Assembly: GCA_019057385.1 (NCBI GenBank)
Contig: JAHQJS010000005.1
Span: 379,130-443,129 of the forward strand
DNA from: Candidatus Borrarchaeum weybense
GTDB taxonomy: Archaea > Asgardarchaeota > Sifarchaeia > Borrarchaeales > Borrarchaeaceae
Length of the DNA: 64,000 nt
Direction of reading: 5' to 3'
A program made the position numbers and the translations under genes. The notes below the pieces were generated by a model. The model made no database searches. It was not told the origin of the DNA and saw only the letters and a program-made list of their open reading frames with translations. Positions within the stretch are counted from its first letter, which is position 1. Every line of letters begins with the position of its first letter. Positions 832 through 51,765 of the stretch are shown one piece after another.

Positions 832-1341
832 CTATTTCTTGAACTTGTAGAGAAATTCGCAGTACTCATCTCCCCACTCTGGGCATTTTGTTAACTTAAA
901 GTCTATTTTAGGATTAACTGCCTTGAATCCTTCTTTCACAAATGTGGCACAAGGTTCGCCGCAAACTTTAAAGGCATCAAGAACATTATATTCTTTAGCC
1001 CTCTCCCAGAGCGCACATTTATATGTTCTCCTCACAGCTCTTTCTGGTGTTGACTCAACAATTTCAGATGTGTATTCAGGACCGAGGGCAACTTTGCCAA
1101 CGACAAGGGATAATCTAGCAGCCCCTGCTGCATCTTCTACTGGTATGTTGTATTTTTGCTGAATCATTGGATGAAGCGCCGCACCGCCTCCACCCCACAT
1201 TCCATTTAAAATCTCTATGACTTTTTCTTTACCCAAGGCACCCACAAGTTGCGCCATTAAACCCATTGCTGATCCACTGAAAACATTAGTGGCGAATGCC
1301 CATTTATCTTCAACTGGGACTTTATCAGCTATCTCAGCCAT
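832..1341 (-). CDS. V4R/ATC-hydrolase-like Cys-containing protein (divergent paralog 1)
   Basis: KCALW...C...VNPK...WGDEYCEF motifs shared with other copies; start MAEIAD after purine-rich SD. Confidence 0.75.
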   Translation of the reverse strand: MAEIADKVPVEDKWAFATNVFSGSAMGLMAQLVGALGKEKVIEILNGMWGGGGAALHPMIQQKYNIPVEDAAGAARLSLVVGKVALGPEYTSEIVESTPERAVRRTYKCALWERAKEYNVLDAFKVCGEPCATFVKEGFKAVNPKIDFKLTKCPEWGDEYCEFLYKFKK

Positions 1342-1395
1342 TTTCCATCCTCTCCTCAATTTGGGTACTTATAGTGCGCCCCTCCTCGGCGCTTA
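1342..1395 (-). promoter_or_regulatory. conserved leader element, copy A
   Basis: TAAGCGCCGAGGAGGGGCGCACTATAAGTACCCAAATTGAGGAGAGGATGGAAA-ATG. Confidence 0.7.
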
Positions 1396-1480
1396 GGGTG
1401 TAAAGAGTCACTTTAATGAGAGTCCTTCAAGTTCACTCTTTCAATAGTGACTCCTGTTCATTTGACTGAACTTACCCTAG

Positions 1481-1531
1481 GACTTGTCATATGACAATTA
1501 AAAAATTAAAATTGCCATTAAATGACAAGTC
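1481..1531. promoter_or_regulatory. nested inverted repeat, putative operator
   Basis: GACTTGTCAT...ATGACAAGTC perfect 10-bp IR; contains TTGTCATATGACAA palindrome and TTGCCAT-TAA-ATGACAA. Confidence 0.5.
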
Positions 1532-1692
1532 AAAAATATATTTATAGCAAGTTCTATATATAGTTTTTGCAAATTAATACTTTACAAATATCTAGTTTAT
1601 GCTACATATAAGTAACGGCGTGAAAGACTTTCATAACTACAAGGAAAATCGAAATTGTCTCCCTCCATCACCCCCTAAAATAGGATTTATTT

Positions 1693-2673
1693 TCATTCTT
1701 CTAATTTTACGACGCATTCACAATAGGGATCTCCAGCACACATACAAGTAATCATTTCCCATGTAGCGTTTGGATTTATGGTACTACCAATGACATGATC
1801 GAAGCGATTGCACCAATCACTGATATCCTTATATTCTGTTTGAAACGGACACTTAATAATTCTCCATCTGTTGATTGTTTTCGATCGCTCAAGTATATTG
1901 GTATCCTGACCTGCGAGTTCATGCCAGATGTCCCAGCACTTCCCAATTGTTTCGCAATCATTGCCTTCTAGTTTGAAGATGGTTCGAATTGTATTGGCAA
2001 TATTCTTGATTCTATCACCCATTTCGTTGAACGTTTCATACATTCTAATTGCTTCTAACGCACCATATTTCTCGCGTAGCGCATATAACCAACTTTTATG
2101 GTTAGATGTCCAACCTTTCATAGCAAAATTGTATTTTAGTTCCCATGGTATCTTCATTTTCTTAACCGTAGTCTTCACAGTTACCTCATTCGATGTTTTC
2201 TCTTGTAACCTCCAAACGTATTCGCAATAGGGATCTCCGGCACACATTCCTTTAGGGCGTTCGAGGATAACCTTTGAATTAACAATCTTTCCCATAATAT
2301 CGAAGAAGGATAAGGACCAGTCGCTGATATCTTCGTATCCTGTTTCAAGTGGACACTTGGTGACCTTTCTTCTATTGATTATTTTGGATCGCTTAAGCAA
2401 ACCAGCTTCAGTCCCAGTTAGCTCATCCCAGATGTCAAGTATTTCTCCAATCGTTTCGCAATCGTTGCCTTTAAGGTTGAAGATGGTTAGAATAGCATTT
2501 GCAAAATTCTTTACTCTTTCATCAATTTTTTGAGCCCTCTCAAAAAGATCAAGAGCTGCTGCTGGACCATATTTCTTCCGGTTAGCATATAAGTATCCTC
2601 GATGGCTGGATGCCCAACCTCTCATTGCCCAGTCATGTTTTAGTTCCCAGGGTATCGCTAGTTTCTTAGCCAA
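1693..2673 (-). CDS. tandem two-domain V4R/ATC-hydrolase-like protein (paralog 2)
   Basis: two copies of IPWELK...KCP...DISDW...MCAGDPYCE. Confidence 0.8.
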   Translation of the reverse strand: MAKKLAIPWELKHDWAMRGWASSHRGYLYANRKKYGPAAALDLFERAQKIDERVKNFANAILTIFNLKGNDCETIGEILDIWDELTGTEAGLLKRSKIINRRKVTKCPLETGYEDISDWSLSFFDIMGKIVNSKVILERPKGMCAGDPYCEYVWRLQEKTSNEVTVKTTVKKMKIPWELKYNFAMKGWTSNHKSWLYALREKYGALEAIRMYETFNEMGDRIKNIANTIRTIFKLEGNDCETIGKCWDIWHELAGQDTNILERSKTINRWRIIKCPFQTEYKDISDWCNRFDHVIGSTINPNATWEMITCMCAGDPYCECVVKLEE

Positions 2674-2965
2674 ACTCTCACACGCTCCCCAAAGCAGATT
2701 TCATTTTAAGAACTTCACTCAAGGCTTAAATAATGATGAACTCAAAAAATACGTTTATTATACAGAGTTCTCCCCAATTCCTCGTTACAATAACGCACTT
2801 CAGGTCACAGGATTTCATATGAATTATTCTTTTGATAAAAATATGTATGTGTCATTCGTACATTTATATTTTAAGATTTGTATTATTTTATGATTTAAAA
2901 AAAGTCAACGATAAGTCTACTTCAATGAGTAAATAAAGGGAATACGAAACGGAATTTCAAAAAAT

Positions 2966-3514
2966 TTAGACTTCCTTAAACTCAATGATTGCTTCGCAGT
3001 ATGGGTCTCCCCATGTCAATGTCTTCACGAGCTTATAAGTTAACTTAGGATTAACTGCCCTTAGTCCCTCTTCGCACCATGCTTGATGCCCTGCAGGACA
3101 AACCCAAAGTTCTGGATCTATATGACGCTCATTATATCTTTCCGACCATGGACACTTTGTCCTTCTTAGTACAGCTCTTTTTGGGTTTGCCTCGACTAGT
3201 TCAAACTTGTACTCGGGTCCACCCATTAAGGTTACAGCAACGATGAGCAATTTAACCGCACCTATAGCATCATCAGCAGGTATGTTGAATCTTTCCTTAA
3301 CCATTGGAAAAACTCTCTGTGCTCCTCTACCCATTATCTTTGCTTGAATCTCATTATATTTTTCATAACCCATAACAGGCGAGATGATACCTTCCCCTTC
3401 TCCCAAAAGAGGTGCTGTAGTTTTCGATCCTCTCAACATTGTGAATCCAGTAAGAGTTTTTGCCGTTATTTCCCAACATTTCTGAGTCGGGATCTTCTTC
3501 AGTAGTTCTGCCAT
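2966..3514 (-). CDS. V4R/ATC-hydrolase-like protein (divergent paralog 3)
   Basis: TKCPW...VC...VNPK...WGDPYCE; closest to paralog 1. Confidence 0.75.
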   Translation of the reverse strand: MAELLKKIPTQKCWEITAKTLTGFTMLRGSKTTAPLLGEGEGIISPVMGYEKYNEIQAKIMGRGAQRVFPMVKERFNIPADDAIGAVKLLIVAVTLMGGPEYKFELVEANPKRAVLRRTKCPWSERYNERHIDPELWVCPAGHQAWCEEGLRAVNPKLTYKLVKTLTWGDPYCEAIIEFKEV

Positions 3515-3794
3515 CCCCTATCACTTTTTTAGAAACTATGATTTGTTATATATTCTGATATCAAATATATAATGTCTCTTCTATTCACTCTATTGGCACG
3601 GCCTAAAGAAAAATGCCATGTCGAATAGGTTGTTATATAAATGTGGAGGTTCTAGGCTCACTGAGGCAATAGAAATCGAAACCAAATACGGCTAGAACAA
3701 CTTAACCAAAAATTTAAAAATTCTAACAAAATGGATACTCTTAAATCTTGCTTGTACCTCAATGCAAAGATGTGTACAAAAAATACTAAAAAAT

Positions 3795-3969
3795 GGGCCC
3801 GTGGCTCAATCTTCGTAACATTCTATGTGTACGAAGAGGCGAAGCTTGGTTAGAGCGCACGGCTGATAACCGTGAGATCATGTCCCCATAATGCGGGATG
3901 TTAGCGGATGTCGTGGGTTCGAATGATAGAAGTCCGGTGCTTCATCCGAAATTCCCACCGGGCCCACCA
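3795..3969 (+). tRNA. trnI: tRNA-Ile(GAT) with three non-canonical introns (~3809-3843, ~3877-3909, 3924-3952), encoded CCA
   Basis: removing three hairpin inserts gives GGGCCCGTGGCTCAGCTTGGTTAGAGCGCACGGCT-GAT-AACCGTGAGGTCGTGGGTTCGAATCCCACCGGGCCCACCA, a complete cloverleaf; anticodon 3865-3867. Confidence 0.9.
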
Positions 3970-3998
3970 CTTATTTTCAAGAGATTTATGATTATTAT

Positions 3999-4523
3999 CT
4001 ATTTTCCTTTCATCTTAAAAAAAAGCCAATTCACATCTCTTTTTTCGCCTTTTCTTGGCTTCAGTTTGATAAGAACATATCCACCTCTAAGCTTGTCTCC
4101 ACTAATATTAACTTCTATCTTTGTATCAGTTTTTTTAATTAACTTAAAACTCCCCCTATCCCATATCTCAACGCTACCCGCTCCATATTCGCCTTCGGGG
4201 ATGATTCCACTAAAAGTCGCATACTCTATTGGATGATCCTCAGTTTGAACAGCGAGTCGTTTAACCCCTGTGTTCAGAGGTGGTTCTTTTGGGATTGCCC
4301 AGCTTTTTAATACACCGTCAAATTCCAAACGGAAATCGTAATGTAAATGGCTTGCATCATGCTTTTGAATTACATAAATTGGCTCATCGTTTTCCCTTTT
4401 TTCAACAGGTTTAGGCGGTGGCTCTGAAGTCTTCTTAAAATCTCTTTTCTCTAGATATTTATCCAATGGTTTGGTGGTCTTTTTTTTGAACCCTTCTTCT
4501 TCTAGATATTTATCCAGTGTCAT
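3999..4523 (-). CDS. stand-alone LigD-type 3'-phosphoesterase (PE domain)
   Basis: [46 protein letters not shown] motifs. Confidence 0.92.
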
Positions 4524-4560
4524 TCCTATCCCCTAATCCCTGCAAGTACGTCCCTATAAA

Positions 4561-5208
4561 CTAAATATTTGCGGAGGGACATAGTTCTCGCACAACACAC
4601 TTATTATGTTCTGGCTTTTTTGCATGACAAATCTTTCTCCCGTGATCTATAATCATATATGTAAATTGAAACCACTCTTTTTTTGGAATAATTGCCATTA
4701 AATCTTGCTCTATCTTGTCGGGGTTTTTGTTTTTCGTCAGCCCCAACCTTTGCGAAAGTCTCTTTACATGTGTATCGACTGCAATCCCTTCAATTTTTCC
4801 AAAAGCATTTGAAATCACTATATTAGCAGTTTTCCGAGCCACACCTGGTAAAGATATTAGCCCCTCCATAGTATCAGGAACGTTTCCATCAAACTTTTCT
4901 ATTATGAGTTTACATGCCTCTTGAAGATATTTTGCCTTATTGCGATAGAATCCGGTCGGACGTATATCGTTTTCAAGCTCGGTTCGATCCGCCTCAGCAT
5001 AATCACGTGCTGTTTTATATTTTTTAAATAAATCTTTTGTAACTTCATTCACTTTAACATCTGTAGCTTGGGTGGAGAGAATCGTTGCGATTAACATTTC
5101 TAGAGGATTTGAGAAGTTTAGAGCGACAGTTGGCTTGGGATATTCTTTCTTCAATAATTTTAGGATTTCCTTAATCCTTTCGTTCTCATCCATGTCCTTC
5201 ATCTTCAT
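4561..5208 (-). CDS. nth: endonuclease III
   Basis: HhH LPGVARKTAN, IAVDTHV, C-terminal Fe-S motif (one Cys replaced by His). Confidence 0.95.
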   Translation of the reverse strand: MKMKDMDENERIKEILKLLKKEYPKPTVALNFSNPLEMLIATILSTQATDVKVNEVTKDLFKKYKTARDYAEADRTELENDIRPTGFYRNKAKYLQEACKLIIEKFDGNVPDTMEGLISLPGVARKTANIVISNAFGKIEGIAVDTHVKRLSQRLGLTKNKNPDKIEQDLMAIIPKKEWFQFTYMIIDHGRKICHAKKPEHNKCVVRELCPSANI

Positions 5209-5354
5209 CTCCTCTTTAAATATGAAGTAAAAACAACTATTTAGGTCGGATTATATCAGCTAAATAGGATAAAATCATTGTGTAATGTATATAGAGAGTA
5301 CTATTGTATAAGCCAAAAATAATGATGTGAATAAAATATTTTTGAAAAAAATTG

Positions 5355-5507
5355 CTATTTTTTGTGTTTTTCCTCGAAAGTATCTGCACAACTTGCACAG
5401 CAAAATACGTATTCTTCTCCATCGATTACTCTCTTTTCATTAGCAAACACGCACTTTTCATCATCCATCTCGACTCCACAATCTCCGCATCGAATAAATT
5501 TCACCAT
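5355..5507 (-). CDS. 50-aa TRASH/YHS-like metal-binding protein (not in ORF track)
   Basis: MVKFIRCGDCGVEMDDEKCVFANEKRVIDGEEYVFCCASCADTFEEKHKK*; GGAGG SD upstream. Confidence 0.75.
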   Translation of the reverse strand: MVKFIRCGDCGVEMDDEKCVFANEKRVIDGEEYVFCCASCADTFEEKHKK

Positions 5508-5862
5508 TAAAAAGCCTCCAATCTTCTTGATTCCTAGGTTTATTTATCGCTCTATACTGTTTTCGCATTTTTATTTGTAAAGTTATAGGCATAAAAAATT
5601 AAAACTCATCATTCAATAGCAGATTTGTTGCTTAATTAGCTCATCTTTTCAGCGATTGTTAGTCAAAGAATATTTCAGTTTGCAATATTGAAAACAAATA
5701 TTTGCAGTGTGCTGTATAGATTATTACAAAATTTAAAAGCATTGAAATTCTCTAGACTTGTGGACTGACTTGCAGTAGGGTTTTCCCTATGTAGTTCCTT
5801 CGTGAGCTTGCAAGTAAGCTTAAGATTACATATCTTGAGAAAAAATTTTCAAAGTGCAAGGT

Positions 5863-6366
5863 TTACTCTTCAATTTTGAATATATATTCACAATGGGGAC
5901 CCCCAGCACACATTCCTTTTGGTCGTTCAACAATTGCCTTTGGATTGATAGTTTTGGCAACAATTTTACACCAGATTAAGCCCCAATCGCTGATATCTTT
6001 GAAAGCTGTTTGCCATGGACACTTCGTAATTCTTGTTCTATCAATTGTTTTAGATCGCTCAAGTATAGTACCTTCCTTTCCCGTGAGCTCCCACCATAAG
6101 TTCCAAACCTTCCCTATCGTTTCAGCATCGTTTCCCTTGAGCTTGAAAATTTTTAGAAGTGTTTTTGTTAAATTCTTTATTCTGTCATCCATGGTGCAAA
6201 GTTTTTCGTAAAGTCTGAGCGCTGTATCCGCACCAAATTCCTCACGAATCACATAAAAGAATCCTTTAAGGCAGTTTGCATATCCTCTCATTGCAAAGTC
6301 ATATTTGAATTCCCAAGGTAGCCCTCTCTTTGCCGTCGGATAAGAGGGGTCCTGTTTCTTAGCCAA
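5863..6366 (-). CDS. V4R/ATC-hydrolase-like protein (paralog 4)
   Basis: KRGLPWEFKY...TKCPW...INPK...MCAGGPHCEY. Confidence 0.8.
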   Translation of the reverse strand: MAKKQDPSYPTAKRGLPWEFKYDFAMRGYANCLKGFFYVIREEFGADTALRLYEKLCTMDDRIKNLTKTLLKIFKLKGNDAETIGKVWNLWWELTGKEGTILERSKTIDRTRITKCPWQTAFKDISDWGLIWCKIVAKTINPKAIVERPKGMCAGGPHCEYIFKIEE

Positions 6367-6422
6367 ACTCCCATCCTCTCCTTAAGCTGGGTATTTAGTA
6401 TGGCGCCCCTCCTTGGCGCTTA
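6367..6422 (-). promoter_or_regulatory. conserved leader element, copy B
   Basis: TAAGCGCCAAGGAGGGGCGCCATACTAAATACCCAGCTTAAGGAGAGGATGGGAGT-TTG. Confidence 0.7.
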
Positions 6423-6494
6423 GAAGGAAGAACTCTAGAAGTTACGATTCATCTTGATAGGATCTCTTGAGAGTGTGCGTTTGAGATGCAAGCA

Positions 6495-7001
6495 TCACTC
6501 TTCTATTTTCCAAACAAATTCACAATGCGGATCCCCAGCACACATTAATTTAATTGGTTCAAAAGCAACCTTAGGAGTTACGGTCTTACCAACAATAATA
6601 TTGAAGCTGTTGCACCAACCGCTGAGATCCTTGGGCTCTGTTTTCCACGGGCATTTAGTATATTTAATTCTATTGACGGTTTCAGATCGCTCAAGTATAA
6701 CACCCTCCTGTCCACAGACCTCACCCCAAACGTCAAACACCGCCCCTATTGTTTCGGCATCGTCTCCATCTATCTTAAATATTTCTAGAATGGGTTTTAC
6801 AAAACCTTCCTTTACTCTATCACTCATATTGTCAATCCTTTCTTTTATTCTGACAGCTGCGTCTGCACCGTATTCCTCACGGATAGCGTATAAGAATGCT
6901 CTGAGTATGTTTGCATATCCTCTTATTGCCCAGTCGTATTTGAATTCACACGGTAACCCTCTCTTGGGCATCGGACAGGGGGTATCCCATTTCTTAACCA
7001 T
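6495..7001 (-). CDS. V4R/ATC-hydrolase-like protein (paralog 5)
   Basis: KRGLPCEFKY...TKCPW...GWC...MCAGDPHCEF. Confidence 0.8.
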   Translation of the reverse strand: MVKKWDTPCPMPKRGLPCEFKYDWAIRGYANILRAFLYAIREEYGADAAVRIKERIDNMSDRVKEGFVKPILEIFKIDGDDAETIGAVFDVWGEVCGQEGVILERSETVNRIKYTKCPWKTEPKDLSGWCNSFNIIVGKTVTPKVAFEPIKLMCAGDPHCEFVWKIEE

Positions 7002-7057
7002 ACTTCCTCCTCTCCCTTAATTTGAGTGTTGGCTATAGCGTTTCTCCTCGGCACATA
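7002..7057 (-). promoter_or_regulatory. conserved leader element, degenerate copy C
   Basis: TATGTGCCGAGGAGAAACGCTATAGCCAACACTCAAATTAAGGGAGAGGAGGAAGT-ATG. Confidence 0.55.
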
Positions 7058-7293
7058 AAAGGAAAAATTCTAGACGCATCTAACTGAACTAGAACTCTCC
7101 TTAATCTCTCTCATGATTGCGATACTCTAGTTCTTAGGTATTATAGATACCTATTCTAAGACGAATCTATATATCTTCAATTCTTTCTTTTATACGTTTC
7201 ATCTTGTCGTTGCTATTTTCTGAAATTTAACTAAAATTATCTCCCCCACAATCCACACTGATATTTGCAAATCATTCACAATCAGATATTAGA

Positions 7294-7331
7294 GTGAACT
7301 ACTCCGCCCTTTCGGAAGGAGTCTTCTCGCC
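7294..7331. mobile_element. IS200/IS605 end-like mini hairpin
   Basis: GTGAACTACTCCGCCCTTTCGGAAGGAGTCTTC resembles ends at 13327 and 58658; flanked by GATATTAGA direct repeats. Confidence 0.45.
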
Positions 7332-7350
7332 GATATTAGAATAAATCCAA

Positions 7351-8085
7351 TTAAGCATGAGCACAAAAAATCTCTACAAAATTATTGAAAACGGTTCTTT
7401 GTATTTCCACTTTATCTTGACTTTTCAACTGTGCGATCTTATCTACAAGGTCTACTACGTCTGCGGGTTCTCCTCTTTTTTTTCTATAGGCTACCGGCCC
7501 ATCGCTTTCGGTTAATATACGTGAGGTATCTATACGTTTCACAAAATTCTGTAATTTTGGTGAATAATGAAGTGCTGGGGTAAAGCTCATAAAGTATCCA
7601 TTATCTATTATTCGGGGTAGCAGGTTTTCTGGTCCTTGATACCAATGCAAAATCACATATTTTATATTAAACGACTCCAAAATGTTCAAAGTTTCATTTT
7701 CTGCACCTTTTGAATGTATAATTACGCTTGCTTCTTTTTCTTCAGCGATTCCTAATAACGCTTTAAAGACTTTAAGCTGAGGATCCCACTCATCCTCATT
7801 TTTAATAAAGTGGTGGTCTAAGCCTATCTCACCCATGATCCCCCTATAAGGGATAATCTCTCTGACTTTTTCAGTATCTTGAATACACTTCGAAGCGTTC
7901 CAAGGGTGAATACCGATTGCGGGAATTACAGTATCATATTGTTTAGCAATTTCTGTTGTCTTCTGGAAGGAAGGAATATCCATTGATACACCAATTATAT
8001 ATTCCACATTGGCGGCTTTTGCTCTTAGTAAGACTTCCAAGATATCTTCATATTCATGGAGATGACAATGATTATCTGCATACAT
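7351..8085 (-). CDS. tatD: TatD family hydrolase/DNase
   Basis: DNHCH, GIHPW, GEIGLD, IIHS, ILHW, ESDGP motifs. Confidence 0.92.
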   Translation of the reverse strand: MYADNHCHLHEYEDILEVLLRAKAANVEYIIGVSMDIPSFQKTTEIAKQYDTVIPAIGIHPWNASKCIQDTEKVREIIPYRGIMGEIGLDHHFIKNEDEWDPQLKVFKALLGIAEEKEASVIIHSKGAENETLNILESFNIKYVILHWYQGPENLLPRIIDNGYFMSFTPALHYSPKLQNFVKRIDTSRILTESDGPVAYRKKRGEPADVVDLVDKIAQLKSQDKVEIQRTVFNNFVEIFCAHA

Positions 8086-8243
8086 AGTAACCACTTCAGG
8101 TAAGGTTAAAGCGGACTTCTTATTCATCAATGTGTAGGGCTTGATTAAAAGTATATTAACAAGATTAACTATTTATTTAGGAATTAATTACGCTTTCTCT
8201 TGTCAGGCAGGTGAGCGGATTTAAAGGGAAAAAACAGTTTTAG

Positions 8244-9113
8244 TTGCTGAACCAAATGGTGTTCAAAAAAATTGAACGTTTGACTGCATTTATAATTCCT
8301 AACCAAGTCCGACAAGAAATTGAAGAGAAGGGTATTATTAGTTATGTTTTTTATCAAGCAAGAAGATTCTCGGAAATAATTTTCTCCAAATTGGTGGAAC
8401 AAAACATACCTTTGTTTTCCTGGGCAGATAATTGGATGTTCTCATTTTCTAAGGAGCGGTTGCAAGCATATATGGATATGGAAAAATGCTTGGAAGATAT
8501 ATTATCTACTTGTGAGTTTTATGAGGGATATTGGCACTACAAAAATATCCGTGCTTATCAAATACCAAGTGAAGTAAAAGCACTTCTAAAAGAGGTCAAA
8601 AAAAATGGTACTTCTATTATACTGGATATCGGGACGTTTGATGGCGGAACATTATACCTTTGGACAAGGTTTCTTGAAGGGCAGAAAATTATAACTATAG
8701 ATTTACCATTCCCATATGGCTATCCTTCAGCGAAGACGAAATTATTCAGATTTTTTGATCCCAATAAAGAATTGCATTTTTTACGTGGCTCGTCTTTTAG
8801 CAACGATATGGTTAATAAAATCGCTAATATCTTAAAAGATAATAAGATTGACTTTCTCTTTATTGATGGTGATCACAGTTACGAAGGTGTAAAAAAAGAT
8901 TTTGAGCGATATAAACCTCTTATTCGTGATGGGGGTATTATAGCCTTTCATGATATTGTGAGTAATAGGTACGGTGTTTCAAAATTCTGGAACGAAATTA
9001 AGCATAAGTATGTTTCAAAAGAAATAATTGCCCCAGTACATGAAATGCAGGCTTATGCACGGTCTAATATTGACAAACAGGGCTGGGGAGGGATAGGTGT
9101 TTTATATATCTGA
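8244..9113 (+). CDS. class I SAM-dependent methyltransferase (Methyltransf_24-like)
   Basis: LDIGT.DGG, DFLFIDGDHSYEGV, GGIIAFHD. Confidence 0.85.
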   Translation: MLNQMVFKKIERLTAFIIPNQVRQEIEEKGIISYVFYQARRFSEIIFSKLVEQNIPLFSWADNWMFSFSKERLQAYMDMEKCLEDILSTCEFYEGYWHYKNIRAYQIPSEVKALLKEVKKNGTSIILDIGTFDGGTLYLWTRFLEGQKIITIDLPFPYGYPSAKTKLFRFFDPNKELHFLRGSSFSNDMVNKIANILKDNKIDFLFIDGDHSYEGVKKDFERYKPLIRDGGIIAFHDIVSNRYGVSKFWNEIKHKYVSKEIIAPVHEMQAYARSNIDKQGWGGIGVLYI

Positions 9114-9201
9114 TTTCTCTCAATTAAAAAAGTAGATAGCAGTAAAAAAAGTTAAAAGAAACTCGCACTTTAGGAGAAGAGACTTCCCCTCTCCTTTACG
9201 A

Positions 9202-10104
9202 CTATTTTTCTTTTTTCTTTGCGAGTAATTCCTTTGAAATATCATATGCTTCCTCAAAACTAAAAACGCCCGTAGTACCTTTGATATTCTTTAATGCCTT
9301 CTTTTCTGTCTTTAGTTTTAAATCTCCGATCGCTAAAGCTCCTATGCCTATTTTTCCTGGCATAAATTCTTCTTTGTCATCTAATGAACCAAGTCCTTCT
9401 ACGCCAAGTGGTGGGACCGCATTAATATCAGCAGCAACTTTAAAACGATCTAAACGCTCCATTGTCCCTTTTGATATGAGTTGATAACCCGCTTTTCCAG
9501 CTGCGATAATTGCATCTGCATCTTTTGATGCCTCATAGATTTCTTCTGCATTTGCGCCTTGAGCGTATCTCACATGTATCTGGTACTCCTGACTTAATCT
9601 TTCGGCGATGCCTTTAGCTCTATCGAATTTTCGGGAACTGATCAGAGGGTTTCCGCCGCTTTTTGCTGACAATATTGCGGCAACTTGCCCTACAGGTCCT
9701 GTTCCCGCTAAAATAGTGATATTCTTACCCTCAAAGCCACCCATTTCCACTAAAGCTTCTTCTGTTTTTGCAACGGCCGCGGCAGCAGTCGTATATGCAC
9801 CCCTTGGGTCTATCATAATAGGAACCTCGAAGGGAGGAACCATTGCCTTCTTTGCTTCTTCTAACACCTGCAAAACTTTTGGAAGGTCACTACCTCCAAT
9901 GAATAGGGCAGTGTATTGGCATCCTTTTACTCCTCGGCTGAATATCGCATCTTGAACAAGGTTTTTTACATCCTCTGGTTCAACATTTGAAAAACAGTGC
10001 ACATGGTCATAGCCAGAATCCACAGACATGTTTATATCAAAGGGCGATGCATATTTGTCCGTATCAATTAAATAGATAATATACTCTTTTCCCACATGTT
10101 TCAC
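9202..10104 (-). CDS. mtdB: NAD(P)-dependent methylene-H4MPT/H4F dehydrogenase (MtdA/B/C family)
   Basis: SPFDINM..D.G.D, DAIFSRG, DP.GAYTTAAA, GTGPVG, D.NAVPP.G, GALAIG.LK. Confidence 0.85.
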   Translation of the reverse strand: MKHVGKEYIIYLIDTDKYASPFDINMSVDSGYDHVHCFSNVEPEDVKNLVQDAIFSRGVKGCQYTALFIGGSDLPKVLQVLEEAKKAMVPPFEVPIMIDPRGAYTTAAAAVAKTEEALVEMGGFEGKNITILAGTGPVGQVAAILSAKSGGNPLISSRKFDRAKGIAERLSQEYQIHVRYAQGANAEEIYEASKDADAIIAAGKAGYQLISKGTMERLDRFKVAADINAVPPLGVEGLGSLDDKEEFMPGKIGIGALAIGDLKLKTEKKALKNIKGTTGVFSFEEAYDISKELLAKKKEK

Positions 10105-10354
10105 CTCGTATGTTATATTCTTTATCTGGACTCAAAAAGCTTTATCCTTTCTATTTTCAACGATTTTTTAAACTTTTAAGAATATTTTCAATTCTGAATT
10201 GAGTAAAATTCACCTTTATTAAAAGTAACTGATACAAAAGAAGACCGTTCTTTCCTTAGAATTTCATTTTTGCACATAAACATCATTTTAAATTGCGAAT
10301 TCAGAAAACATAAAAACTGAAACCATATTTCCTTCTCTCAAAGGTGGGCTCTAA

Positions 10355-11314
10355 TTGACGTTAGCTGTTGAAATAAAAAATCTTACGAAAATCTATCCTG
10401 GAAGGGGCATCCTAAATAAAGCACCAGCTGTAACGGCGTTAGATGATGTAAATCTAGAAATCAAGAAGGGAACAATATATGGTCTTCTAGGTCCTAATGG
10501 AGCTGGAAAAACTACCTTGATTCATATTTTAGCTGGCGTTCTCTTGCCAACCACCGGCACTGCAGAGGTCTTTGGACATGATGTCGTACGGAAGGCACGG
10601 GAGGTAAGATCTTTAAGTAATTATGGTGCTGGACAAGGCTCACTTTTTTGGAATCTTTCCCCAAAAGAGAACTTGCTTTATTATGCGAAACTTTATGGCC
10701 TTCCCAATTCTGAGGCTGTTGAAAAAATAAATAACCTATTGGAATTCTTTGGCCTGAAGGAACGAGCCAATCTTAAAAGTGCTTATTTGTCCTCGGGGTT
10801 AAAACAGCGTGTCAAACTTATCAAAACGCTTCTCAACGACCCTAAATTATTACTGCTGGATGAACCCACCTTAGGTCTCGATGTTGACATCGCCAGAAAA
10901 ATACGTGCTTACATTCAAGAACTGTCCCATGAAAAAGAAATGACAATATTGCTCACTTCACATAATATGTACGAAGTAGATGAATTATGTGATGAAATAG
11001 CTCTTATTGATAAAGGGCGAATCGTTTCTATAGGAACTCCGGATGAACTTAAAAAGCAGGTTTCTGAGTTTGAATCCCTGGAGTTGTCCTTCTCAAACTA
11101 TGATGGTGATCCTTCCTCATTCTTAGATGATCTAGTTTTGAGATCAACATTTAGAGATGGAGCACTGGTGCTTCACGTCTCTGATATTGATTCTTCAATA
11201 GATGCCATTCTTCGACGCCTGTTATCCCATAAATTTGTGATTTCCTCAATAAACACGAGACGGACAACTTTAGAGGATGTGTTTCTAAACTTAACAGGAC
11301 GGGGGTTGAAGTAA
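10355..11314 (+). CDS. ABC-2 type exporter ATP-binding subunit
   Basis: GPNGAGKTT, LSSG, LLLLDEPT, LTSH. Confidence 0.92.
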   Translation: MTLAVEIKNLTKIYPGRGILNKAPAVTALDDVNLEIKKGTIYGLLGPNGAGKTTLIHILAGVLLPTTGTAEVFGHDVVRKAREVRSLSNYGAGQGSLFWNLSPKENLLYYAKLYGLPNSEAVEKINNLLEFFGLKERANLKSAYLSSGLKQRVKLIKTLLNDPKLLLLDEPTLGLDVDIARKIRAYIQELSHEKEMTILLTSHNMYEVDELCDEIALIDKGRIVSIGTPDELKKQVSEFESLELSFSNYDGDPSSFLDDLVLRSTFRDGALVLHVSDIDSSIDAILRRLLSHKFVISSINTRRTTLEDVFLNLTGRGLK

Positions 11315-11315
11315 A

Positions 11316-12128
11316 ATGCTCAGAGTTTATCTTCGTCAAGTATATGGCTTCACTTACAGACAGACTCACAATATCGCTAAAAGTCCGATTGGAATCTTTG
11401 AAATTGTAGTGTGGCCATTAGCGAGTTTATTCTCCATAGGATTTCTGGGATCTTTTGTAGACGTTTCAGCTAGCACAAACATATCTTTTGTTACATTCAT
11501 TTTGATTGGACAATGCGGCTGGTCTTTTAGTTATGTTGTTCAGCAAGCCTTGAGTTATGGCCTCATGCATTCGATGTGGAGTGGTACTCTTATCGACATG
11601 ATGGCTAGCCCTGCAGATGAAAATCAGTTTATCATTGGGAATGCACTCGCAGGAGTTATTAAGGGAGTAGTAGTTCTTGCTGTCATGGGAGTCTGTAGCT
11701 TAGTTGCATTTAATGTTAACATCTTCGCCGGTGGAGTTTTTGCAGTCTTTCTAATCATATTCAGTGTCTTTCTTGCGGCAGTTTCGTTAGGCCTTATAGT
11801 TCTTATATTAATTTTCTATTTTGGCCAAGAGGCCCAGGTAACGGCGTGGACGATCACTGGCTTAACTGTCCTTTTCAGCGGCGTTTTCTACCCTGTAACA
11901 ATTTTACCCCCTCTAATTAGGCCGTTAAGTTACAGCATTCCTCTTACATATGCGTTCATTGCGTGGCGAGAAATAACCCTTCAAGGTGCAAGCATGGCTG
12001 ATGTATCGTTTGTACTGCTTCAAATGGGCGTTTCCAGTGTACTATGGCTCGTAATAACGTGGTCTGTTTGTCTATTCACGATAAAAAGAGCAAGGAAAAT
12101 TGGAATGATTTCGCAACTTTCTGATTGA
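11316..12128 (+). CDS. ABC-2 type permease
   Basis: six hydrophobic segments, FSGVFYPV..LP motif; directly follows the ATPase gene. Confidence 0.88.
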   Translation: MLRVYLRQVYGFTYRQTHNIAKSPIGIFEIVVWPLASLFSIGFLGSFVDVSASTNISFVTFILIGQCGWSFSYVVQQALSYGLMHSMWSGTLIDMMASPADENQFIIGNALAGVIKGVVVLAVMGVCSLVAFNVNIFAGGVFAVFLIIFSVFLAAVSLGLIVLILIFYFGQEAQVTAWTITGLTVLFSGVFYPVTILPPLIRPLSYSIPLTYAFIAWREITLQGASMADVSFVLLQMGVSSVLWLVITWSVCLFTIKRARKIGMISQLSD

Positions 12129-12531
12129 ATCTAGATTTATTATTATTGTTACTGAGTTATGAAAATTAATAATCGCAAGAGATGAAAGTAAATAACACCG
12201 GTAATTATATACATAAATTTCTTATGAGTGCTAACGATACTAGGAATATGAAATCGCAATAGAGCAGGAGAATAGGGTTTTTTCAAGCGTAGATTTGCTT
12301 AACAATAACAAAGATACGTCTAAAAGAGTAATATCTCGCTAAATACAATCCCTTCCACCCATGCTCCACGTTTGTCCCAGTTCCCCATGATTAGTCGCAA
12401 CTGTTGATCCAATCGAAAAATTTTATTTTAAGAACGTCTAAAAGTATATGACCGAGTAAAGTATAAAAGTAACAAGAACGCATACATAGACTTATAAAAA
12501 TTGCTCTAGATTCTCGAATCTTGATTCAATT

Positions 12532-12586
12532 TAAGTGCCAAGGAGGGGCGCAAAATAAGTGCCCAATCTAAGGGAGGGAGGACAAT
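12532..12586 (+). promoter_or_regulatory. conserved leader element, copy D (before a non-paralogous gene)
   Basis: TAAGTGCCAAGGAGGGGCGCAAAATAAGTGCCCAATCTAAGGGAGGGAGGACAAT-ATG. Confidence 0.7.
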
Positions 12587-13312
12587 ATGAAAGTATTAGC
12601 ATTCAACTGCAGTCCAAGTATGGACAAGGGAAACACAGCTCTGATCTTCAATCCCTTTGTTGAGGGGATGAAGGAAGCTGGGGCTGAAGTCGAACTTTTC
12701 TACACGAACAAGCTCAAGATCAACTTTTGCACCGGGCAGGTTAATTGCTGGTTCAAGCATCCCGGAAAGTGCTATCAAGACGATGACATGAACATGCTCT
12801 ACCCCAAACTACGCGAAGCGGACGTCTGGGTGTTCGCCACTCCGGTTTATTGGGACGGAGTCACCGGACCGATGAAGACACTTATTGACCGAACGGCGCT
12901 CCCGCTTTTCGGGCCATTTTACGAGCTACGCGATGGTCATACGCGGACTATTTGGCGCGAAGGAACCACGTCCACAAAAGTCGTGTTGGTATCCGTTGGT
13001 GGCCAGTGGGAGATGGACATCTTTGACCCGCTACTTGTCTACATGAAGGCCATGTGCAAGAACTCAAACTTTGAATTCACAGGGGCTTTGCTGAGACCTC
13101 ATACACATGCAGTGAAGCCTATGATAGAAAGTGGTGCTGTAAACGACATCTTCGAAGCGGCGAAAGAGGCTGGTCGCCAACTCGTGAAAAATGGTAAAAT
13201 GTCCGCCGAAATCCTAAAGACCGTTAGCCGTGAACTTGTACCCCAGAAGCCGTATATGGAAGGGTTCAATCAGTTTATCCAACAGATTCTAGACTCAATG
13301 AAGAAAGAATAG
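12587..13312 (+). CDS. flavodoxin-family / iron-sulfur flavoprotein (NADPH-dependent FMN reductase-like)
   Basis: MKVLAFNCSP...GNT, CTG..NCW....G.C...DDM, ATPVYW.G..G.MK..IDR. Confidence 0.88.
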   Translation: MKVLAFNCSPSMDKGNTALIFNPFVEGMKEAGAEVELFYTNKLKINFCTGQVNCWFKHPGKCYQDDDMNMLYPKLREADVWVFATPVYWDGVTGPMKTLIDRTALPLFGPFYELRDGHTRTIWREGTTSTKVVLVSVGGQWEMDIFDPLLVYMKAMCKNSNFEFTGALLRPHTHAVKPMIESGAVNDIFEAAKEAGRQLVKNGKMSAEILKTVSRELVPQKPYMEGFNQFIQQILDSMKKE

Positions 13313-13326
13313 TATCGACGGATAGG

Positions 13327-13545
13327 GTCAACTACCCCACCCTAAAGGGTAGGTGCTTGGGAAACCAAGTTCCTTAGTTGATTAGAGGGCTTCCCTTTGT
13401 GGGAGCAGCAGTTGTTTAGGTCATGACACCCTGGGGTGCTCCACTAGCCCCTTGCTCTGTCGTCGGTGGTTAAAAGTCCTGAGGGGTAGGGACGGTGCTG
13501 CCGATGCCAAAAGCCTTTACAACAGCCTCGAAGTGGACCTACTTC
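13327..13545 (+). ncRNA. IscB-type omegaRNA / HEARO-like RNA scaffold (3' end approximate)
   Basis: GTCAACTA/TAGTTGAT helix, CTTGG-GAAA-CCAAG hairpin, GTTGTTTAGG/CCTTTACAAC helix, ACACCCTGGGGTGCTCCACTAGCCCC with TCCACT(13440)/AGTGGA(13532) pseudoknot. Confidence 0.82.
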
Positions 13546-13705: not shown

Positions 13706-13871
13706 ATGATGAGGGACTTAAGGCAAGTAATTCTAATATATCTTACACACATACGAAACTTATACCAAGATTAGAACCCTACACGAATTTTTTATCGAGC
13801 TTAAGAATGAGTAATCATTTGGGACTAATACTCAAACGCTTGAACATCTAGATTAAGGGAAGGAGGAGACA

Positions 13872-14348
13872 ATGGCTATGAAAATAACGATACCGTGGGA
13901 ACTAAAATACAAATATGCTAGGGGAATGTTGACAACTCTGTTCAAAGGATTCATGTATGTGATCCGTGAGAGACATGGCGCGGCAGAAGCACTCGAAATA
14001 CATCAACTGGTCAATAAAATGGATAATAGAATACAGAATATGATCCGCACACTTAAAGATGTTTTCAAAATAGAGGAAAACGATATCGAAGCGCTTAGAA
14101 GTGTGTGGGAGATCTATCTGGACCTTACTGGGATTATAAGCACCACACTTGAGCAGTCTGAAAAACTTTGGAGACATAAAATTACTACCTGTGCCTGGGT
14201 AACAGAGCCCAAAGATCTCAGCGATTGGTGCTATAACTACTGTAGCCTTATGAACAAGTTCATAAATCCAAAGACGACCCTTGAGCGACCTAAAGCCATG
14301 TGTACAGGAGATTCAGAATGTGAATTTGTGGTTAAGATTGAAGAGTGA
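13872..14348 (+). CDS. V4R/ATC-hydrolase-like protein (paralog 6)
   Basis: IPWELKY...TTCAW...DWC...INPK...MCTGDSECEF; 3' half of the leader (GATTAAGGGAAGGAGGAGACA) upstream. Confidence 0.8.
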   Translation: MAMKITIPWELKYKYARGMLTTLFKGFMYVIRERHGAAEALEIHQLVNKMDNRIQNMIRTLKDVFKIEENDIEALRSVWEIYLDLTGIISTTLEQSEKLWRHKITTCAWVTEPKDLSDWCYNYCSLMNKFINPKTTLERPKAMCTGDSECEFVVKIEE

Positions 14349-14925: not shown

Positions 14926-14997
14926 ATCAAACATTTCAAAATCGTTCTCTAAAGTTGTCGGATATAGTAAACTCAGATTGAGGGAGAGGAGGAGACT

Positions 14998-15474
14998 ATG
15001 ACTGAGAAAATATCGATACCTTTGTTATTAAAACATGATTTTACCTTGAGAGCTTATTCATCTATCGTCAAAGGATTTTTATACGCGATCCGCGAGAAAC
15101 ATGGTGGAAACGAAGCGCTGGAAACTTACGTAAGGGTCTGCACAATGGATGATAGAATAAAGAATCTTACAAATGCACTTCTAGATATCTTCCAACTAAA
15201 GGGGAGTGATGCTGAAACAATAGGAAAGTGGTTTGAAGTCTGGTTTGAACTCACTGCATTTGAATATGCTACACTTGAGCGGTCTAAGACAAGTAGTAGA
15301 GTTAAAGTCACCAAATGTCCGTTCAAAACTGAGCCCAAAGATCTCAGTGACTGGGCTTTAATCTTCACAAATCTTGTTTCAAAGACCATAAATCCAAAAG
15401 CTACAGTTGAACGCCCTAAAGCAATGTGTGCTGGGGATTCCTATTGCGAATACATTTGGAAAATAGAAGAATGA
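14998..15474 (+). CDS. V4R/ATC-hydrolase-like protein (paralog 8)
   Basis: TKCPF...DLSDW...INPK...MCAGDSYCEY; 3' half of the leader (ACTCAGATTGAGGGAGAGGAGGAGACT) upstream. Confidence 0.8.
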   Translation: MTEKISIPLLLKHDFTLRAYSSIVKGFLYAIREKHGGNEALETYVRVCTMDDRIKNLTNALLDIFQLKGSDAETIGKWFEVWFELTAFEYATLERSKTSSRVKVTKCPFKTEPKDLSDWALIFTNLVSKTINPKATVERPKAMCAGDSYCEYIWKIEE

Positions 15475-51656: not shown

Positions 51657-51765
51657 GGGCCCGTGGCCTAGCCAGGATAGGGCGCAGGCCTTCTAAGCCT
51701 GATTGCGGCCCTCAAATTGATTGCTGCAGAGGAGACCGCGAGTTCAAATCTCGCCGGGCCCGCCA
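51657..51765 (+). tRNA. trnR: tRNA-Arg(TCT) with ~31-nt intron in the variable region (~51702-51733)
   Basis: acceptor GGGCCCG/CGGGCCC, anticodon arm CAGGC-CT-TCT-AA-GCCTG, T arm GCGAG-TTCAAAT-CTCGC, CCA. Confidence 0.9.

Follow-up and report, generated by a model that had tools for sequence, protein, structure and literature searches.

The window analysed here is a 64-kb stretch of the genome of the Asgard archaeon Borrarchaeum, in which four copies of a leader, A to D, abut the start codons of genes. A sequence-only reading of the same DNA had reported these four copies, their near-fixed distance from the start codon and the degeneracy of copy C, and all three observations are borne out. 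The features of the locus, with P1 denoting the hairpin stem of the leader, are the following.

832..1341, minus strand: gene after copy A, 169 aa, ATC_hydrolase-like, subfamily 1
1339-1341, minus strand: ATG of copy A
1342..1395, minus strand: leader copy A, covariance model score 77 bits
about 1348-1357, minus strand: SD-like GAGGAGAGGA of copy A
1363-1365, minus strand: tail CCC of copy A, followed by A at 1362
1366-1375, minus strand: A-rich linker of copy A
1381-1387, minus strand: loop GAGGAGG of copy A
1388-1392 pairing with 1376-1380, minus strand: P1 of copy A
1396..1478, minus strand: additional upstream domain, found in the long Borrarchaeum-type leader, copy A
1484..1497, no strand assigned: palindrome TTGTCATATGACAA, within what is presumably the promoter region of copy A
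5863..6366, minus strand: gene after copy B, 167 aa, ATC_hydrolase/MetOD1-like, subfamily 2
6364-6366, minus strand: start codon TTG of copy B
6367..6422, minus strand: leader copy B, 75 bits
6389-6391, minus strand: tail CCC of copy B
6408-6414, minus strand: loop AAGGAGG of copy B
6415-6419 pairing with 6403-6407, minus strand: P1 of copy B
6495..7001, minus strand: gene after copy C, 168 aa, MetOD1-like, 55% identical to the copy B gene
6999-7001, minus strand: ATG of copy C, intact, as is its SD
7002..7057, minus strand: leader copy C, degenerate, 60 bits; P1 is GUGCC/AACGC with two pairs broken, tail CUC
12491-12500, plus strand: TATA-like CTTATAAAAA of copy D
12532..12586, plus strand: leader copy D, 73 bits
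12535-12539 (GUGCC) pairing with 12547-12551, plus strand: P1 of copy D
12540-12546, plus strand: loop AAGGAGG of copy D
12562-12564, plus strand: tail CCC of copy D
12587, plus strand: ATG of copy D
12587..13312, plus strand: gene after copy D, 241 aa, FMN_red/flavodoxin-like flavoprotein
13327-13542: HEARO RNA, a separate element 0.8 kb from copy D
13829..13871, plus strand: relic leader E, 22 bits, SD-proximal half retained and hairpin gone
13872-14348, plus strand: paralog after relic E, subfamily 2
14971..14997, plus strand: relic leader F, no hairpin, SD-proximal half 91% like that of copy C
14998-15474, plus strand: paralog after relic F

A genome-wide scan places seven further copies outside the window, giving 11 in the genome. 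A covariance model, which the sequence-only reading had proposed, scores all 11 at 60-83 bits, with the runner-up match at 30 bits. The distance from motif start to start codon is 54-56 nt in 11/11 genome copies; two of these had automatic GTG start picks, for which the ATG at +54 is the better reading. Within the window, the 17-nt hairpin core has three matches at up to 3 mismatches (shuffles expect 0.01, and 0/100 reach three), and the core of copy C carries 4 mismatches. The 3' halves noted earlier at 13851-13871 and 14971-14997 are real, and are decayed, hairpin-less leaders of paralogous genes. Leader conservation far exceeds that of the coding sequence: leaders A and B are ~85% identical, yet their proteins are barely alignable (E=0.039). 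The copy A gene belongs to a subfamily shared with a tandem array outside the window, and the copy D flavoprotein has no relation to the other downstream genes.

The leader folds as an H-type pseudoknot supported by covariation, composed of P1, a 5-bp GC hairpin, and P2, a loop-tail helix. P1 is GCGCC/GGCGC with a 7-nt loop GAGG-N-GG, 3' of which an A-rich linker ending in AARUA (10 or 13 nt, two length clusters among 230 instances) leads to a CCN tail; this tail base-pairs with loop positions 10-12. P2 of the main type has two G-C pairs and either A opposite C or a bulged A, and it directly adjoins P1, so that L2 is 0 nt. Among 126 distinct sequences, part of which were retrieved with patterns that fix P1, this stem is paired in 99.4% of cells, and P2 pairing reaches 99% at G11:C2 and G12:C1 in the same set. 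Double compensatory changes are found at 4/5 pairs of P1 (G-C to A-U, C-G to U-A, G-C to U-A; the counts ignore kinship), together with the G-U wobble variants GUGCC/GGCGC, GCGUC/GGCGC, GCGCU/GGCGC and GCGCC/GGUGC. All five covariation measures, taken with no phylogenetic correction, beat 500/500 shuffles and every slid control. Loop position 10 and tail position 3 combine as A/C in 73 cases, U:A in 35, G:C in 3, C:G in 2, A:U in 1 and U/C in 4. When metagenomes were scanned with a non-A base required at loop 10 and the rest held fixed, 66/72 motif-like matches had the Watson-Crick tail base (U:A 59, C:G 4, G:C 3); this set omits L203 and L230, which are GC-rich, chance-like and lack an SD.

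The GYGCC/GGCGC hairpin with an SD-like loop that had been proposed from the letters is real and covaries. The second structural element is the pseudoknot that the ACCCA tail forms with the loop, and neither of the two features put forward earlier: the alternative GGGCGC/GTGCCC helix is present in copy D but only there, and the TAAG-Y-R-CC direct repeat exists in this genus but is confined to it, since other lineages do not conserve the 5' UAA. Unpaired positions are near-invariant in the model-found copies (loop GAGG, AARUA before the tail and A after it), which is typical of aptamers. A search for a conserved covarying alternative helix sequestering the SD found none; tail-SD pairing is predicted at a mean probability of 0.59, without covariation backing, and single leaders have unremarkable thermodynamic z-scores. 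In an RNA library of a Syntrophoarchaeum culture, one contig spans the gene, the SD and the leader as far as the tail, which is slight evidence for an RNA leader.

Beyond this genome, the same core recurs in more than 117 stretches from genomes (115 carry an archaeal label) and in more than 120 metagenome contigs. The archaeal carriers are ANME-1, Bathyarchaeia, Thermoplasmata, Methanomassiliicoccales, Asgard, Hadarchaeota, Archaeoglobi and Methanomicrobia, and one identical core is shared by Asgard, Bathyarchaeia, ANME-1, Thermoplasmata, Hadarchaeota and Archaeoglobi. Genomes carry 1-18 copies, with one tandem pair of elements seen (L305), and the distribution within classes is patchy (22/101 Bathyarchaeia, 12/61 Asgard relatives); 2.9 million viral contigs gave a single match. 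The element is co-oriented with its gene in every instance, the tail lies 5-13 nt from the SD in most of the 230 instances, and the downstream SD is strong. Across lineages, the proteins downstream of identical cores are unrelated. Secreted or surface proteins predominate (~58-75% signal-peptide-like; secreted proteins are encoded by 59/79 downstream genes vs 49/141 neighbouring ORFs), and peptidases are also among the targets. The remaining targets are small cytoplasmic proteins, namely DUF3303, GYD, SnoaL and ATC-hydrolase-like proteins and flavoproteins or flavin oxidoreductases, with small DABB-fold proteins prominent in the non-secreted set. DUF3303 and GYD are the commonest kind (23/76 cytoplasmic targets), and in single-copy Bathyarchaeia genomes the sole target is usually a DUF3303-, GYD- or ABM-like gene of 85-104 aa. 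The earlier idea of a riboregulator or protein-binding leader thus belongs to the right family, but the local regulon of V4R genes plus a flavoprotein was too narrow, since the motif is common to many archaeal phyla and elsewhere mostly precedes secreted proteins.

At the gathering threshold, Rfam 15 matches only a HEARO and a tRNA in the window and nothing at the leaders, and at E up to 10 four multi-copy loci gave chance-level unrelated matches only; literature searches found no earlier description of the element. The four repeats are copies of an uncatalogued RNA pseudoknot of ~40 bases just 5' of the RBS, in support of the earlier claim of an uncatalogued, strand-specific leader before unrelated genes, and this leader is probably a new gene-control element. 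With a probability of about 0.8, in our estimate, the leader is a functional structured RNA that acts post-transcriptionally, and a new class of cis-acting, riboswitch-like translational riboregulator is the most likely reading. Covariation, orientation and the SD/start spacing mark it as a conserved structured cis RNA in the 5' UTR, as a riboswitch would be.

In architecture, the leader resembles the preQ1-I (RF00522), SAM-II, preQ1-II and guanidine-III riboswitches, which are likewise H-type pseudoknots of ~35-45 nt with a 5-bp P1, a very short P2 made from the 3' tail and the loop, an A-rich 3' linker (L3) that would sit in the P1 minor groove, highly conserved unpaired nucleotides and a position directly upstream of the SD. 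It differs from them in its purine-only, SD-like loop, in an SD that lies outside P2, 5-13 nt downstream, and in occurring in archaea rather than bacteria, before genes unlinked to queuosine, SAM or guanidine. It lacks the hallmarks of preQ1-I itself: there is no RF00522 match, the L2 segment that carries the ligand-pairing C in preQ1-I is missing, and no que genes occur among ~250 downstream ORFs.

Several other explanations bear on the same features. The P1 arms form an inverted repeat, and some copies lie downstream of TATA-like boxes, as might be expected of a DNA operator for a transcription factor, or of an initially transcribed promoter element, that defines a regulon. However, the G-U wobble variants keep the RNA pairing yet break the DNA palindrome, the loop-tail covariation is non-palindromic, and the element keeps a strict relation of strand and spacing to the SD and none to the TATA box; the operator suggested by the sequence-only reading is thus a poor fit and very unlikely. 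The recombination site or cassette boundary suggested alongside it, whether integron attC-like or a gene-recruiting mobile-element end, would agree with tandem arrays of one element per gene, with a patchy cross-phylum distribution suggestive of horizontal spread, and with the HEARO/omega RNA near copy D. The arrays, though, are made up of paralogous genes, the motif lacks GTTRRRY/RYYYAAC core sites (the R''/R' cores of attC), no transposase or integrase recurs as a neighbour, viral contigs yield almost nothing, and a fixed position 5' of the SD and start suits an mRNA function, making this origin highly improbable. Nor do the copies look like the IS or transposon ends against which the earlier reading had asked for a check, being single and host-gene-oriented, with no terminal partner repeat or transposase. 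Archaeal L7Ae K-turn leaders are also small hairpin elements in 5' UTRs, and a K-turn bound by L7Ae is brought to mind by the many lineages in which GA precedes the stem and AAU-GA follows it: flanks of the type ..GA-GCGCC...GGCGC-AAUGA.. in Bathyarchaeia, Asgard (Frey/Jord), Archaeoglobi and Methanomicrobia are compatible with the C-stem, 3-nt bulge and tandem G.A pairs of a K-turn. Yet the 3' GA is missing in the Borrarchaeum copies of the window (UAA...UCUAUAAG) and in the ANME-1 type (UUUAUAAA), no covarying NC stem is seen, and the -2/-1 GA is found in only 60-69%. The 3-nt bulge with tandem sheared G.A/A.G pairs is absent from 11/11 genome copies and from the ANME-1 type, and only the AAUGA-linker type shows a resemblance, at the level of sequence; we give a K-turn hardly any credence.

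Two further readings accept an RNA leader. It may be a constitutive ribosome-engaging leader that senses no signal, in which the SD-like loop offers a standby site or, in the manner of the Bacillus thuringiensis cry3A STAB-SD, stabilises the 5' end, and the compact 5'-proximal fold shields abundant mRNAs, such as those of the secretome, from 5'-end-dependent decay and boosts initiation. Both abundant loop variants, AGGAGG and GAGGUG, have 6-nt complementarity to the 16S 3' end GGAUCACCUCCU, as STAB-SD and standby sites upstream of a real SD do, and we also count on this side that the rare C and G loop variants lose it. Given the TATA-like boxes that several lineages have ~35-45 nt upstream, the hairpin there would sit 5-15 nt from the 5' end. 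The enrichment of secreted proteins recalls the highly expressed, often exported protein behind STAB-SD, the Syntrophoarchaeum downstream gene lies in a deep RNA-library contig (a depth that cannot rank genes), and dependence on the ribosome would account for sequence identity across phyla. Yet the AGG needed for the anti-SD is already used in P2, and the C:G and G:C variants retain the intramolecular pair, not the rRNA complementarity. Many copies have at least 90 nt of leader upstream, which in these cases keeps the hairpin away from the 5' terminus; an SD-like stabiliser would not need the linker end and tail to be so conserved; and patchiness is odd for a purely ribosome-dependent device. 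STAB-SD, moreover, is not a conserved structured family, unlike this leader, whose SD-like bases belong to a covarying pseudoknot and have conserved partners, for which a plain stabiliser would have no use. We regard this reading as rather unlikely. The pseudoknot might instead be recognised by a conserved RNA-binding protein of archaea that acts as a global post-transcriptional regulator, with CsrA/RsmE-like logic in which a dimer bridges the loop GGA and the SD GGA; a small dimeric alpha/beta-barrel protein (DUF3303, GYD) with the motif on its own mRNA could fill this role and would then be autoregulatory. A multi-copy, heterogeneous regulon, a loop GGA ~30 nt from the SD (a few tens of nt in CsrA targets, whose regulon is likewise broad), the prominence of DUF3303 and GYD among cytoplasmic and lone targets, and a patchy distribution that would fit dependence on an equally patchy factor all favour such a site. 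DUF3303 and GYD, however, have no known RNA-binding activity, CsrA is bacterial and we know of no archaeal homologue, the loop here pairs intramolecularly in a sequence far more fixed than CsrA sites, and Watson-Crick loop-tail covariation shows that the fold itself is selected, beyond a linear protein site. A protein site is rather unlikely, but, like the ribosome-engaging leader, it is a serious competitor of the preferred reading.

Under the preferred reading of a riboswitch-like translational riboregulator, P2 would be only marginally stable, and a ligand or factor would stabilise or melt it, altering 30S engagement with the neighbouring ribosome-binding site. This might happen through the bulk of the pseudoknot fold, through exposure or hiding of the SD-like loop as a decoy or standby site, or through release of the C-rich tail to contact the real SD; the outcome would be to set translation of the downstream mRNA and, secondarily, its stability. 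That the effector is a small ligand, making this a true riboswitch, has somewhat less than even odds in our judgement: the heterogeneous gene set suggests no ligand, an SD-like loop with a strong real SD suits a ribosome- or protein-binding leader equally, and neither SD sequestration by a covarying helix nor the folding energies of single leaders lend it support. More speculatively, and with a rather low chance of being right, the motif could be the aptamer of an Archaea-only riboswitch class that senses a global signal, perhaps a second messenger or a redox- or aromatic-type metabolite, and co-regulates the secretome and small DABB-fold proteins in anaerobic archaea (Asgard, Bathyarchaeia, ANME-1, Thermoplasmata and others), in which case the P2 end-pair variants A/C, U:A, C:G and G:C may be tuning or specificity variants. 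The c-di-GMP-I/II riboswitches offer an analogy at the level of the regulon only, being multi-copy and preceding heterogeneous genes rich in secreted or surface proteins; their fold and size are unrelated to those of the leader, and the analogy does not imply a nucleotide messenger.

The cis-regulatory RNA classes described so far from Archaea are, to our knowledge, very few, and we are aware of almost nothing on post-transcriptional control in uncultured Asgard, Bathyarchaeia and ANME-1. The leader would be an abundant, archaea-wide and structurally well-defined regulatory element, an orphan riboswitch or riboregulator candidate whose ~40 nt suit probing and crystallography, and a marker of a candidate co-regulated set comprising the secretome and DUF3303, GYD and SnoaL proteins. 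It could be of practical use in annotating start codons and small proteins, and possibly as a portable expression leader for archaeal genetics.

Upstream of copy A, but not of copies B, C and D, lies the two-hairpin domain at 1396..1478, enclosed by a closing stem of 1475-1478 with 1395-1398. The adjoining TTGTCATATGACAA palindrome is a candidate transcription-factor operator, specific to the lineage, and half-sites resembling it continue upstream to ~1540.

A conserved pseudoknot lies directly 5' of the ribosome-binding site in a set of mRNA leaders that the window shares with many archaeal lineages. Inspection of the window sequence confirmed the four leader copies that the sequence-only reading had described:

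1342-1395 (-): copy A
6367-6422 (-): copy B
7002-7057 (-): copy C
12532-12586 (+): copy D

On the transcribed strand all four follow one layout, UAAG-GCGCC-GAGGAGG-GGCGC, 4-5 nt, YAARUACCCA, 3 nt, a purine-rich Shine-Dalgarno sequence (SD) and the start codon. With at most 3 mismatches allowed, the window has three matches to the 17-nt hairpin core, where shuffles would lead one to expect 0.01, and copy C is the degenerate fourth. Scanning the whole assembly (4.18 Mb, 37% GC, 8 contigs, archaeal SSU rRNA), we found 11 copies, comprising the four in the window, a tandem array of five approximately 16-18 kb upstream of it and two on another contig. They score 60-83 bits with the covariance model, the next match scoring 30 bits, and in 11 out of 11 the automatically chosen start codon lies 54-56 nt past the motif start. 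The additional 3' halves reported at 13851-13871 and 14971-14997 are real, but they are decayed leaders of paralogs in which the hairpin has been lost, not full copies. An alternative helix proposed for copy D is confined to that copy, and the TAAG direct repeat is not conserved outside the Borrarchaeum genus.

Next, we investigated the fold. The 5-bp hairpin stem, P1, is paired in 99.4% of cells on 126 distinct sequences, with double changes at four of the five pairs (GC to AU, CG to UA, GC to UA) and many G-U wobbles; variants include GCUCC/GGAGC, GUGCC/GGCAC, ACUCC/GGAGU and GCGUU/GACGC. In a second helix, P2, the three bases that end the loop (N10, G11 and G12) pair with the CCN tail. A metagenome scan in which everything was fixed, except for a non-A at loop position 10 and free tail positions 2-3, yielded the combinations below.

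Loop position 10 and tail position 3 (counts among the non-redundant matches listed)
U:A, 59
C:G, 4
G:C, 3 (one further has the tail CUC)
U:C, 3
U:G, 1
C:A, 1

The common type carries A opposite C at these positions, with one A:U copy, and one relative has an A11:U2 pair. The association between loop position 10 and tail position 3 is very strong (Fisher, p-value 1e-21) in a pooled alignment that ignores kinship and was partly chosen by pattern, and each of the five covariation measures lies above 500 of 500 shuffles and above all slid controls. The element is an H-type pseudoknot, in which a GAGG loop (L1) follows the first P1 strand, the three positions of P2 abut P1, and an A-rich loop (L3) of 10 nt, the commonest length, or 13 nt ends in AARUA. 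The unpaired positions hardly vary in copies that were found with the model alone. Single-sequence folding energies of the leaders were not exceptional. In GC-rich copies from Thermoplasmata and Methanomassiliicoccales (e.g. L275, L277, L282), a short extra hairpin, CCCGC-N3-4-GCGGG, separates the ACCCA tail from the SD, and its 3' arm extends into the SD G-run.

The covariance model finds 6 and 14 copies in two genomes of the same genus, Borrarchaeum, and weaker copies in four other Asgard families. A match was present in 12 of 61 Asgard relatives, and 22 of 101 sampled Bathyarchaeia genomes carry one to three copies. Scanning one genome for each prokaryotic species with an exact pattern (hairpin, 4-14 nt gap, ARUACCCA) gave at least 117 stretches; 115 of the matches listed have archaeal record titles and two are in bacterial-labelled metagenome-assembled genomes (MAGs). 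Both large scans are biased by their patterns, and their counts are of matches listed.

Lineages in the exact-pattern scan (stretches among the matches listed)
ANME-1/Methanophagales, approximately 19
Bathyarchaeia, approximately 18
Thermoplasmata, approximately 17
Asgard, 15
Methanomassiliicoccales, 10
Remainder: Methanosarcinales, Methanomicrobia, Hadarchaeota, Archaeoglobi, Methanocellales, Syntrophoarchaeum, Methanosuratincola and one Aenigmatarchaeota

Copies per genome were 18 in Methanomassiliicoccales, 11 in ANME-1, 7 in Methanomicrobia, 2 in Archaeoglobaceae and 1 in Bathyarchaeia, while viral contigs gave one match in 2.9 million. With this spread over many archaeal lineages, the element is not a local one. 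MAGs make up most of the carriers, and the taxonomic picture is therefore blurred by mis-binning and horizontal transfer. Canonical copies on contigs binned as Aminicenantes (L042), Dehalococcoidales (L060) and the ammonia-oxidising archaeon Nitrosotalea (L118) likely reflect mis-binning or horizontal transfer; the target of L042 groups with proteins of ANME-1, and L118 has a flank of ANME-1 type. In every lineage the element is on the same strand as an ORF, with a strong SD, typically GGAGGUGA, 5-13 nt past the tail and the start codon after it.

When examining the downstream genes, we found that the targets in the window's genome are two ATC_hydrolase/MetOD1-like subfamilies, a DUF3303 protein, an FMN_red flavoprotein and a 124-aa protein without family. 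The two subfamilies can hardly be aligned with one another (E=0.039), and the leader is thus far better conserved than the genes behind it. A 326-aa ORF at 1693-2673 (-) contains two tandem subfamily-2 domains (repeat families D1, D2, D6; 504-nt period) and has no hairpin leader ahead. None of the 11 targets in this genome looks secreted. Outside the Borrarchaeum genus, a crude hydropathy rule calls a signal-peptide-like hydrophobic start in 59 of 79 targets, compared with 49 of 141 nearby ORFs that have an SD (odds ratio 5.5, p-value = 1e-8); peptidases and surface proteins of the beta-helix/NosD, DUF11, CARDB and PPC types are among these secreted-type targets. In a set of 76 non-redundant targets that lack such a start, the prevailing type is the small dimeric alpha/beta-barrel protein, and CMD, ACT and ATP-cone proteins also occur.

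Families among the 76 non-redundant targets that lack a signal-peptide-like start
DUF3303, 14
GYD, 9
ATC_hydrolase-like, 6
SCO4226-like, 5
SnoaL-like, 5
ABM, 2
Stand-alone RAM domain, 2
OYE, 2
MIase, 1

In single-copy Bathyarchaeia genomes the target is usually a DUF3303-, GYD- or ABM-like gene of 85-104 aa, and the motif is of the U:A type with P1 GCUCC/GGAGC.

The sequence upstream of the element is lineage-specific. A TATA box at a fixed distance was not seen upstream of 84 copies; some, including copy D, Hadesarchaea, Syntrophoarchaeum and the tandem array, have a TATA-like box 35-45 nt upstream, which would put 5-15 nt between the 5' end and the hairpin, and others have long leaders. A look for RNA contigs matching the window stretch itself listed none. 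A contig from an RNA library of a Syntrophoarchaeum culture runs through the gene behind the element, its SD and the leader, reaching the base that precedes the CCC tail. The 3' part of the element, at the least, is thus in RNA; the contig breaks within the motif, at a 30-mer that is repeated, and the 5' end is outside its reach. In Borrarchaeum, copy A and two copies outside the window, G and L, share an additional structured domain of approximately 85 nt immediately upstream of P1, made up of a closing stem and two hairpins with some compensatory changes. The leaders with this domain are:

1396-1545 (-), in the window
L001:5680-5846, outside the window
L002:7105-7270, outside the window

Their promoter regions share palindromic TTGTCATATGACAA-like sites, with two or three TTGTCA..TGACAA palindromes each, and together with the extra domain these may form a second, lineage-specific control layer. 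Copies B-D and the tandem copies have the universal pseudoknot without the extra 5' domain. As the mark of a regulon, the palindrome TTGTCATATGACAA was unconvincing, with few sites genome-wide.

The pseudoknot would act on translation initiation or mRNA stability. We tentatively favour a small-ligand riboswitch (probability roughly 0.4), given a size and topology like those of preQ1-I, SAM-II and related classes, the invariant unpaired bases, the marginal P2, multi-copy regulons and one tandem pair. That pair (L305, Bathyarchaeia genome G164, C2:4886-6351) consists of two motif copies in front of a single membrane-protein gene, with approximately 45 nt between them, and the tail of the first is degenerate. 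In nested folding the C-rich tail alternatively contacts the G-rich SD with a mean probability of 0.59; no covariation was found between tail type and UUGG/UGGG words near the SD, which leaves a classical SD-sequestering switch unproven. It is less probable that the leader is bound by a regulatory protein with CsrA-like logic, possibly through autoregulation by DUF3303 or GYD proteins.

The loop itself is SD-like. The 16S rRNA of the window's genome ends in GGAUCACCUCCU, and both abundant variants, AGGAGG (type A, with A at loop position 10) and GAGGUG (type U, with U there), are complementary to it over 6 nt; the rare C and G variants lose this match but not the intramolecular pair, and the tail has no complementarity to 16S rRNA that we could find. 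A constitutive standby site or STAB-SD-like stabiliser seems rather unlikely, somewhat more so than a protein site. The G-U wobbles favour RNA over DNA, as do the rules of strand and spacing and the fact that the loop-tail pair is not palindromic, and we would give very long odds against a DNA operator, a cassette boundary or a K-turn. The K-turn and attC readings were rejected, as was the suggestion of an IS end. A leader peptide was also discarded, the AUG of the AAUGA linker being absent in the Borrarchaeum genus and ANME-1 and the frame not conserved.

Rfam 15 families gave no match to the element at gathering or E-value thresholds. No description of the exact motif was found in the searched literature, and searches on archaeal structured RNAs and leaders, Asgard ncRNA, and DUF3303 or GYD with riboswitch returned nothing describing the element. 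It would work much as small H-type pseudoknot riboswitches do, but has no match to their models, no L2 and other genes downstream, which places it outside those families. We therefore file it as a new class among structured cis-regulatory mRNA leaders and orphan riboswitch candidates.

Other features were also observed. A full-length HEARO/omega RNA (RF02033, 130 bits) lies at 13327-13542 (+), 15 nt past the flavoprotein stop codon and approximately 330 nt ahead of the following ATC_hydrolase-like gene, whose leader no longer has the hairpin; no IscB/IsrB ORF is evident beside it, the sole ORF there being 85 aa long and overlapping the RNA. An 84-nt direct repeat (87% identical, 96-nt period) at 16636-16815 falls within a 571-aa ORF at 15497-17212 (-). 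A tRNA match at 51657-51762 (+) spans 106 nt against a 71-position model, suggesting an intron-containing gene. Outside the window, the SSU rRNA gene (L004, G000:C5:332567-335232) measures 2666 nt against a 1478-position model and so carries approximately 1.2 kb of insertions (introns).
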